A stretch of DNA of 8,335 nt from a virus (Duplodnaviria; Heunggongvirae; Uroviricota; Caudoviricetes). Positions within the stretch are counted from its first letter, which is position 1, and every line of letters starts with the position of its first letter. The stretch spans positions 1 to 8,335 of IMG/VR virus record IMGVR_UViG_2880361019_000005, one strand, 5' to 3'. Of this stretch, positions 5,459 to 5,807 are shown one piece after another. A model generated the notes under the pieces. It was given only the letters and a program-made list of their open reading frames with translations, was not told the DNA's origin and ran no database searches. Position numbers and translations under genes: made by a program.

Positions 5459-5807
5459 TGGAGCACCTCAAAAACACCATCATACACTAAATCAGTAAGT
5501 TGGCAGCATCACCAGATTTTCCAGATCCTGATATTAAATCCTGCCCAAATAAATGGGCATCACGCAAAATATACAGATTTGCTGGAGTTATTGAGTAATG
5601 AGAGTTAGCCAAGAGGTGAGATAATATCCATCTATGGCACAGAACTAAACATAATCTGACTATATGCTCTGTGCCAAAAACAGATGTTATATCATGTATT
5701 GTATGCTCATCCTGCAAAATATAAATTCCGCAGATACCCCTTACCTCTGAATATTAATCCACAATGGATGCGACAAAAAAGATTTTAAGTTGGCATCAGG
5801 CGAAATA

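Follow-up and report, generated by a model that had tools for sequence, protein, structure and literature searches.

The 294 nucleotides at positions 5514-5807 are very probably an internal piece of the xis-int region of a lambdoid prophage, cut on the left by IS1, and not the terminal spacer of a genomic island. The window referred to throughout is the whole stretch of DNA that was analysed, 8,335 nt of the viral record IMGVR_UViG_2880361019_000005. Comparison with relatives shows that the segment is made up of three parts: a remnant of the excisionase gene xis, the 3' trailer of that gene, and the 3' trailer of a cargo gene, which had been described as an orphan (Table 1). Its annotation is corrected here to a truncated excisionase gene and two 3' trailers, neither an island end nor an IS1 scar; it is an ordinary prophage xis-int segment disrupted by IS1.

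Table 1. Features in and around the segment, in window coordinates (~ marks an approximate boundary)
Feature	Position	Strand	Details
IS1	4746..5513	-	768 bp; left border of the 5514-5807 segment
xis 3' remnant	5514..5598	+	last base of codon 37, codons 38-64, stop codon 5596-5598
xis 3' trailer	5599..~5690	+	~80-87% identity with relatives carrying other cargo
Imperfect hairpin	5610..5701		arms 5610-5643 and 5668-5701, 34 nt, 74% complementary
Left arm of perfect 9-bp inverted repeat	5635..5643		TGGCACAGA
Right arm of perfect 9-bp inverted repeat	5668..5676		TCTGTGCCA
3' flank of orphan gene	~5691..5807	-	found only together with the orphan gene
10-mer	5786..5795	+	TAAGTTGGCA; ends 12 nt from the orphan stop codon (5808-5810)
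Orphan cargo gene	5808..6836	-	342 aa from M36 (RefSeq CDS in L001); open frame on to 6941
Integrase	7100..8335	-	P4-type tyrosine integrase, 411 aa; Pfam Arm-DNA-bind_3, Phage_int_M, Phage_integrase; same prophage

The leftmost part was identified by way of an IS1-free relative, locus L001 (ExPEC XM, NZ_CP025328.1), in which an intact xis ORF of 64 aa lies at 6891-7085; it reads MNNLMTTKQVAEFCGVSISTVLRWNSVNRRTGQKYRPDFPDPDIKSCPNKWASRKIYRFAGVIE and was found just upstream of the point equivalent to window position 5514. This protein matches the PHROG 1553 profile, 'excisionase', over residues 1-64 of 64 (E=2.3e-35). Weak matches to HTH_17, MerR and Xis_Gifsy_1 were also seen, with scores below the cut-off for Pfam HTH_17 (20.9 bits, cut-off 27) and for TIGR01764 (17 bits, cut-off 28.8). 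The plus strand of the window at 5515-5598 translates in frame to DFPDPDIKSCPNKWASRKIYRFAGVIE*, which is the C-terminal 27 residues of the 64-aa excisionase and its stop. Since the intact ORF in L001 matches the excisionase profile and the window frame gives its last 27 residues, the stretch 5514-5598 is the 3' end of a phage excisionase gene that IS1 has cut, the first 37 codons and all that lay upstream having been removed. The 5' 110 nt of xis and its promoter side are missing from the window and IS1 stands in their place; the exact IS1/xis breakpoint is ambiguous by 2 nt, 'cc' being common to both sides. The preliminary description had reported a non-coding spacer with no convincing ORF, and in this respect it was mistaken: the left 85 nt are coding, for the C-terminus of an excisionase whose gene is intact in relatives. 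The xis gene is unannotated in the RefSeq entry NZ_CP025328.1.

Several features are shared with known phage excisionases (PHROG 1553; Xis of lambdoid, Gifsy and P4-type int modules). The protein is small, at 64 aa, with an N-terminal HTH, and its gene is the last of the leftward early operon, beside a tyrosine integrase at the prophage end. The window differs from these in keeping just the C-terminal 27 codons, and the arrangement differs from that of lambda in that xis and int are convergent here, whereas in lambda they are co-transcribed.

Of 5426 complete E. coli genomes, 522 have a match to the segment, which is full-length in 61. The gene order in L001 is cI, yfdP, yfdQ, yfdR, xis, the spacer sequence, a hypothetical protein (the orphan), the tyrosine integrase and yjjG, the last two being adjoining. 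The related prophage is ~48 kb long, and in relatives it continues leftwards via xis, yfdR, yfdQ, yfdP and cI. The suggestion that the spacer might hold the remains of the islet's original distal end is contradicted by this arrangement, as the relatives' prophage runs on leftwards past xis. The 'islet' itself is the int-proximal stump of the ~48-kb prophage, with its present end at the IS1 junction, 5513/5514.

The right border of IS1 was correctly described as adjoining the spacer, the element ending at 5513 and the spacer starting at 5514. The ends of this copy are GGTAATGACTCCAAC... and ...TAAGTTGGCAGCATCACC, and other genomes carry homologous copies with the annotation IS1A/IS1B transposase. 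Its flanks differ, being ATGGCGGTG on the left (4737-4745) and AGATTTTCC on the right (5514-5522), so that there is no 9-bp target duplication. On the left the neighbour is a truncated tail-fibre gene, in the tail-fibre and effector region (nleG7, espS) of another lambdoid prophage; on the right it is the truncated xis of a different prophage, integrated at yjjG. Judged by these neighbours, IS1 unites two unrelated prophage segments, and, given the lack of a target duplication and the tail-fibre gene of a different prophage on the other flank, the junction arose either through a rearrangement brought about by IS1 or because two IS1 copies recombined. The IS1-xis junction was not found in any complete E. 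coli genome searched; H31 was considered as a genome sharing it and rejected, the apparent coverage coming from an IS1 in nleD elsewhere. Since two different prophages meet at this IS1 copy, the stump that carries int and the orphan is left without an intact excisionase gene next to it, and on this side of IS1 the remainder of the prophage is gone.

The region to the right of xis was compared across about 160 prophage loci obtained by protein-guided retrieval. At the protein level xis is 95-100% identical and the P4-type integrase 96-100% identical across the loci. The interval between them (5599-7099 in the window; loci L002-L169) is occupied by low-GC cargo that measures between 1.0 kb and over 4 kb, may lie on either strand and is unrelated from one type to the next; it includes AbiU, dCTP deaminase, Dsr1, the PDC-M01 pair (PDC-M01A/B) and PDC-S59. 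In all relatives whose contig reaches int, the integrase lies 1-4 kb from xis or abuts it; a cargo slot separates the two in the E. coli relatives, whereas in the relatives from Pantoea, Trabulsiella and Symbiopectobacterium int directly abuts xis, with no cargo, the abutment in Pantoea and Trabulsiella being tail to tail.

The orphan gene matches PHROG 7779, a family of unknown function, over residues 36-377 (E=1e-246); there was no match in Pfam, NCBIfam or PADLOC. Of the 5426 complete E. coli genomes, 61 have its 3' flank, as do 13 fetched loci, namely L001 and 12 IMG/VR contigs. From this distribution of cargo, the orphan gene is one of many alternative cargos carried between xis and int, among them known defence systems, and because the slot holds such systems it is a reasonable candidate for an uncharacterised defence gene. 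P2 and P4 provide examples of defence-gene hotspots in temperate phages and satellites. The xis-int slot resembles them in that conserved flanks, here xis and int, bracket mutually exclusive low-GC cargo with defence systems; the comparison concerns the xis-int neighbourhood and not the spacer itself. A literature search found no paper on the xis-int slot or on the phage PhiR63_1, which is one of the loci compared. The cargo slot and the orphan gene are a more promising lead than the spacer itself.

Between the coding remnant and the orphan flank lies the inverted repeat to which the preliminary description had drawn attention. A repeat search found both arms where they had been placed, with 24 nt between them. 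Among 1000 dinucleotide shuffles of the spacer, 56 (5.6%) contained a perfect inverted repeat of this length or more, 9 bp being the minimum and the loop 3-40, so that the repeat alone is marginal. It is, however, the innermost part of the longer imperfect hairpin listed in Table 1, which has a predicted free energy of -30.7 kcal/mol on the plus strand (z -2.84) and -34.1 kcal/mol on the minus strand (z -3.59) relative to shuffles. It had been suggested that the palindrome might be regulatory or encode a small RNA and that RNA folding be used as a check. The folding check did show an extended stem-loop that folds better than shuffled sequence, and the palindrome is conserved in relatives; a regulatory role or a small RNA is possible. 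A search of Rfam 15 gave nothing credible: the best matches, to eukaryotic miRNA/lncRNA models, scored 13-19 bits where the gathering scores are 80-130.

Several familiar elements were considered for the hairpin and rejected. It is not an intrinsic terminator: the loop is long (24 nt in the window, 20-24 nt overall), there is no T-tract, and a terminator scan of both strands over 5400-7200 found none. The stem is followed by AAAAAC on the plus strand and by ATAGATGG on the minus strand. Promoter-like sites are at chance level (10 vs 6.8 ± 2.3), and the -35-like TTGGCA hexamers, one on the minus strand of the right arm and one inside the 10-mer, are not conserved in relatives. Reading the arms as a sigma-54 site (TGGCAC-N5-TTGC) or as a LexA box fails, by eye, on spacing and on the -12 element. 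A cassette-flanking, attC-like repeat was likewise set aside, the motif occurring once per locus with no recurrence at the int side or between cargo genes.

In relatives, similarity to the window runs through xis as far as ~5640-5700 and then stops at lineage-specific points (query positions 1 to ~130-186). The trailer, including the hairpin, is kept beside plus-strand and minus-strand cargo alike. This pattern shows that 5599-~5690 is an xis trailer common to the phage lineage irrespective of the cargo downstream, and that the palindrome is the core of a long imperfect stem-loop within it. The stem is kept in 26 of 50 distinct downstream sequences, 19 of them counted because 8 bp or more of the CACAG stem make up their longest inverted repeat and the other seven (L045, and six sequences of the L033/L012 class plus L003) by another criterion; in L045 the stem is a contiguous 13 bp. 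In about half of the variant classes it has been lost by point changes or replaced, and in several lineages point changes have eroded the right arm, 5668-5676. In its lower part the stem does not keep its register from one relative to another.

An alignment of 22 variants was used to look at pairing in the 11-pair core stem. In this alignment 79.9% of cells are paired, compared with 20-44% when the partner strand is slid, and at pair 39-76 five sequences, which belong to at least three separate lineages, have A-U in place of G-C. The covariation measures for the core stem were reached by just 1-5 of 500 shuffles. RNAalifold run on all 22 variants gave no consensus structure. A second hairpin, upstream and right after the xis stop, is found in most relatives and is 73% paired, but it is degraded in the window lineage and shows no covariation, 222 of 500 shuffles reaching the observed value. 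Averaged over pairs of sequences, the arms diverge by 0.24-0.28 and the stretch just past the xis stop by 0.35, against 0.16 at xis third codon positions; since the divergence of the trailer is not lower than that of the third codon positions, purifying selection is not evident. By the test of conservation in related loci that the preliminary description had put forward, the palindrome survives and the 10-mer does not: many diverged relatives have the palindrome, with compensatory change on a modest scale. In about half of the variants it has decayed.

It is close to an even chance that the hairpin is a neutral relic, that is, an ancestral inverted repeat in the xis trailer which persists only through close kinship and has no present function. 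This would fit a trailer whose divergence equals or exceeds that of xis third codon positions, a stem that is gone in about half of the variant classes, the failure of RNAalifold to give a consensus structure, and the lack of a terminator signature or an Rfam family. Set against a neutral relic are the compensatory G-C to A-U changes in at least three lineages, with covariation above that of shuffles, the rebuilt stem in L045, the folding, which is significantly better than that of shuffled sequence, and the retention of trailer and hairpin next to cargo on both strands. In a quasi-palindrome, however, template switching can produce such changes as well, with no selection involved.

Alternatively, and as a more tentative possibility, the stem-loop may be the ancestral 3'-end structure of the xis unit, which may insulate the cargo and int genes or serve as an RNase III-type site. 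In this case it would form, or would once have formed, the RNA 3' end of the leftward early operon, whose last gene is xis. It would serve to stabilise the RNA, to insulate, or as a processing site of the RNase III type, and it could limit antisense read-through into the convergent cargo and int genes. A parallel is found in lambda, where tI/sib is a retroregulatory hairpin and an RNase III-type site. Both are long imperfect stem-loops just downstream of a site-specific recombination gene, and both would be reached by read-through of an early leftward transcript. The differences are that the window hairpin follows xis and not int, is not adjacent to att, has no sequence similarity to sib, and has a stem that is dispensable in many relatives. 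In the window itself any role of the hairpin for xis is moot, because xis has lost its 5' half and its promoter side. The defence systems in the cargo slot make the conserved trailer hairpin a testable candidate for a boundary or insulator element.

A wider proposal would combine the hairpins with the cargo slot, and this we consider unlikely. According to it, the two-hairpin block after xis would be a boundary element, an RNA insulator or sib-like RNase III site that ends the induced early-left transcript and spares the convergent cargo and int genes from silencing by read-through. The block would belong to a hotspot for defence cargo between xis and int, so far undescribed, in lambdoid prophages of E. 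coli, and the orphan (PHROG 7779) would be an uncharacterised anti-phage gene.

It is less likely still that the inverted repeat acts as DNA, as a site for a dimeric protein (Xis, Int or a phage regulator), with an upstream copy, TGACACA, as a third half-site. The left arm, ATGGCACAGAG, is the best conserved stretch, TGACACATCTATGGCACAGAG occurs in many relatives and L002 has two exact direct copies of TGGCACAG; symmetric changes in the two arms, moreover, would fit co-evolving half-sites as well as a paired RNA. In many relatives TGACACA sits 11 bp before TGGCACA, but this upstream copy is absent in the window lineage. The half-sites of the inverted repeat are also 24 nt apart, no promoter above chance adjoins them, and the arm motif recurs nowhere else in the loci. 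An arm-type site for Xis or Int in particular was rejected, as the att/int-promoter region has no TGRCACA and carries TGTACA repeats in its stead.

The plus-strand reading of 5514-5598 as the end of xis has a competitor on the opposite strand, a 76-aa ORF at 5487-5717 that is listed among the ORFs of the window. In PhiR63_1 (locus L088, PV340573.1) an antisense 'hypothetical protein' of 121 aa is annotated at 3483-3848 in place of xis. That a minus-strand protein is encoded here is scarcely credible: the ORF is antisense to a gene with a strong excisionase profile match and overlaps the wobble positions of xis, its N-terminus falls in a variable region, and it has stops in 7 of 17 variants tested, whereas the sense ORF of xis is open in all 17. 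It was rejected as a gene on this lack of conservation, and the annotation in PhiR63_1 is probably a mis-annotation.

The 10-mer near the orphan stop codon had been described as identical to the core of the IS1 terminal repeat. It is present where it had been reported and the identity is exact; the only other copy of TAAGTTGGCA in the window, at 5496-5505, lies inside the IS1 end. In their closest relatives the 294 nt differ from the window at a single position, which falls inside the 10-mer: position 5787 is A in the window and G in the relatives. This A was seen only in the window, and the full length of the 10-mer depends on it. Twelve fetched relatives that carry the orphan gene and are free of IS1 read TGAGTTGG(C/T)A, half of them with T at 5794, and across the 81 nt that surround the 10-mer not one of the 61 complete E. 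coli genomes with the segment agrees fully with the window. If the ancestral G is put back at 5787, the identity to IS1 shrinks to the 8-mer AGTTGGCA. These comparisons indicate that the 10-mer is a chance match that was lengthened by a G-to-A change peculiar to the window, and the suggestion that it might be simply chance was borne out, no full match being found on alignment with the relatives.

A second, degenerate IS1 end at 5786-5795, whether as a lone inverted repeat or as a trace left by an earlier IS1, is practically untenable, being refuted by the relatives' sequence and by the comparison of the 61 genomes. The match to the IS1 end is exact over 10 nt, just 3% of spacer shuffles (149 of 5000) share a 10-mer with the terminal 30 nt of IS1, and AGATTTT lies beside both the real IS1 end and the 10-mer. 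However, the match covers just 10 of the ~23 nt of an IS1 terminal inverted repeat, the flanking bases agree at only 2 of 7 and 2 of 8 positions, and there is no similarity past the 10 nt. The homologous site is, furthermore, present in the 61 genomes, which are IS1-free; since IS1-free relatives carry it, the site predates IS1. When shuffles of the window outside IS1 are taken in place of those of the spacer, 39% (116 of 300) share at least one such 10-mer, and IS1-end 10-mers evidently arise easily here, as a second real example is found at 1635. This second 10-mer, CAGCATCACC at 1635-1644, is identical to an IS1 terminus and lies far from IS1. Lastly, the motif at 5786 is a better match to a local 23-nt repeat of the xis coding region than to IS1.

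The AGATTTT copies are at 5514-5520, the first 7 nt past the IS1 end, and at 5780-5786, the 7 nt that lead up to the 10-mer. Both copies are native to IS1-free relatives, and the repetition is for this reason probably a coincidence.

The local 23-nt repeat is a direct repeat, with one copy at 5786-5808, which contains the 10-mer, and another at 5550-5572, within the coding part of xis. These agree at 19 of 23 positions, or at 18 of 23 if the ancestral G is restored, and a weaker third copy is found at 5700-5722. The repeat family, T.A.T.G.CATC..GC.AAATAT, has members both in the coding part of xis and in the sequence on the 3' side of the orphan, and so connects the two. In shuffles, 18 matches were reached in 4 of 600 and 19 matches in 0 of 600, for a repeat length that was chosen post hoc. 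A duplicated 3' end of xis was considered as the origin of the repeat and rejected, as blastn-short found no xis-like remnants in 16 cargo regions (the window's own and 15 of other classes). The repeat is a minor curiosity.

Two further observations concern the int side of the slot. On the 3' side of int (~6990-7099 in the window; downstream of the int stop in the loci) a short motif and a hairpin (…ACTGACAGTCCGCTTTGAGCGAGAAGCGG…) are present in many cargo classes. The int 3' hairpin of the window reads CCAGT…ACTGG followed by GTTTTT and looks like a terminator for int. In the int-att region of L001, at 9823-10050, there are several TGTACA-containing repeats (CTTGTACAAATCG, TTTGTACATTATGTACAAGCACATGTACAG), which could plausibly be Int or Xis arm-type sites of the phage.
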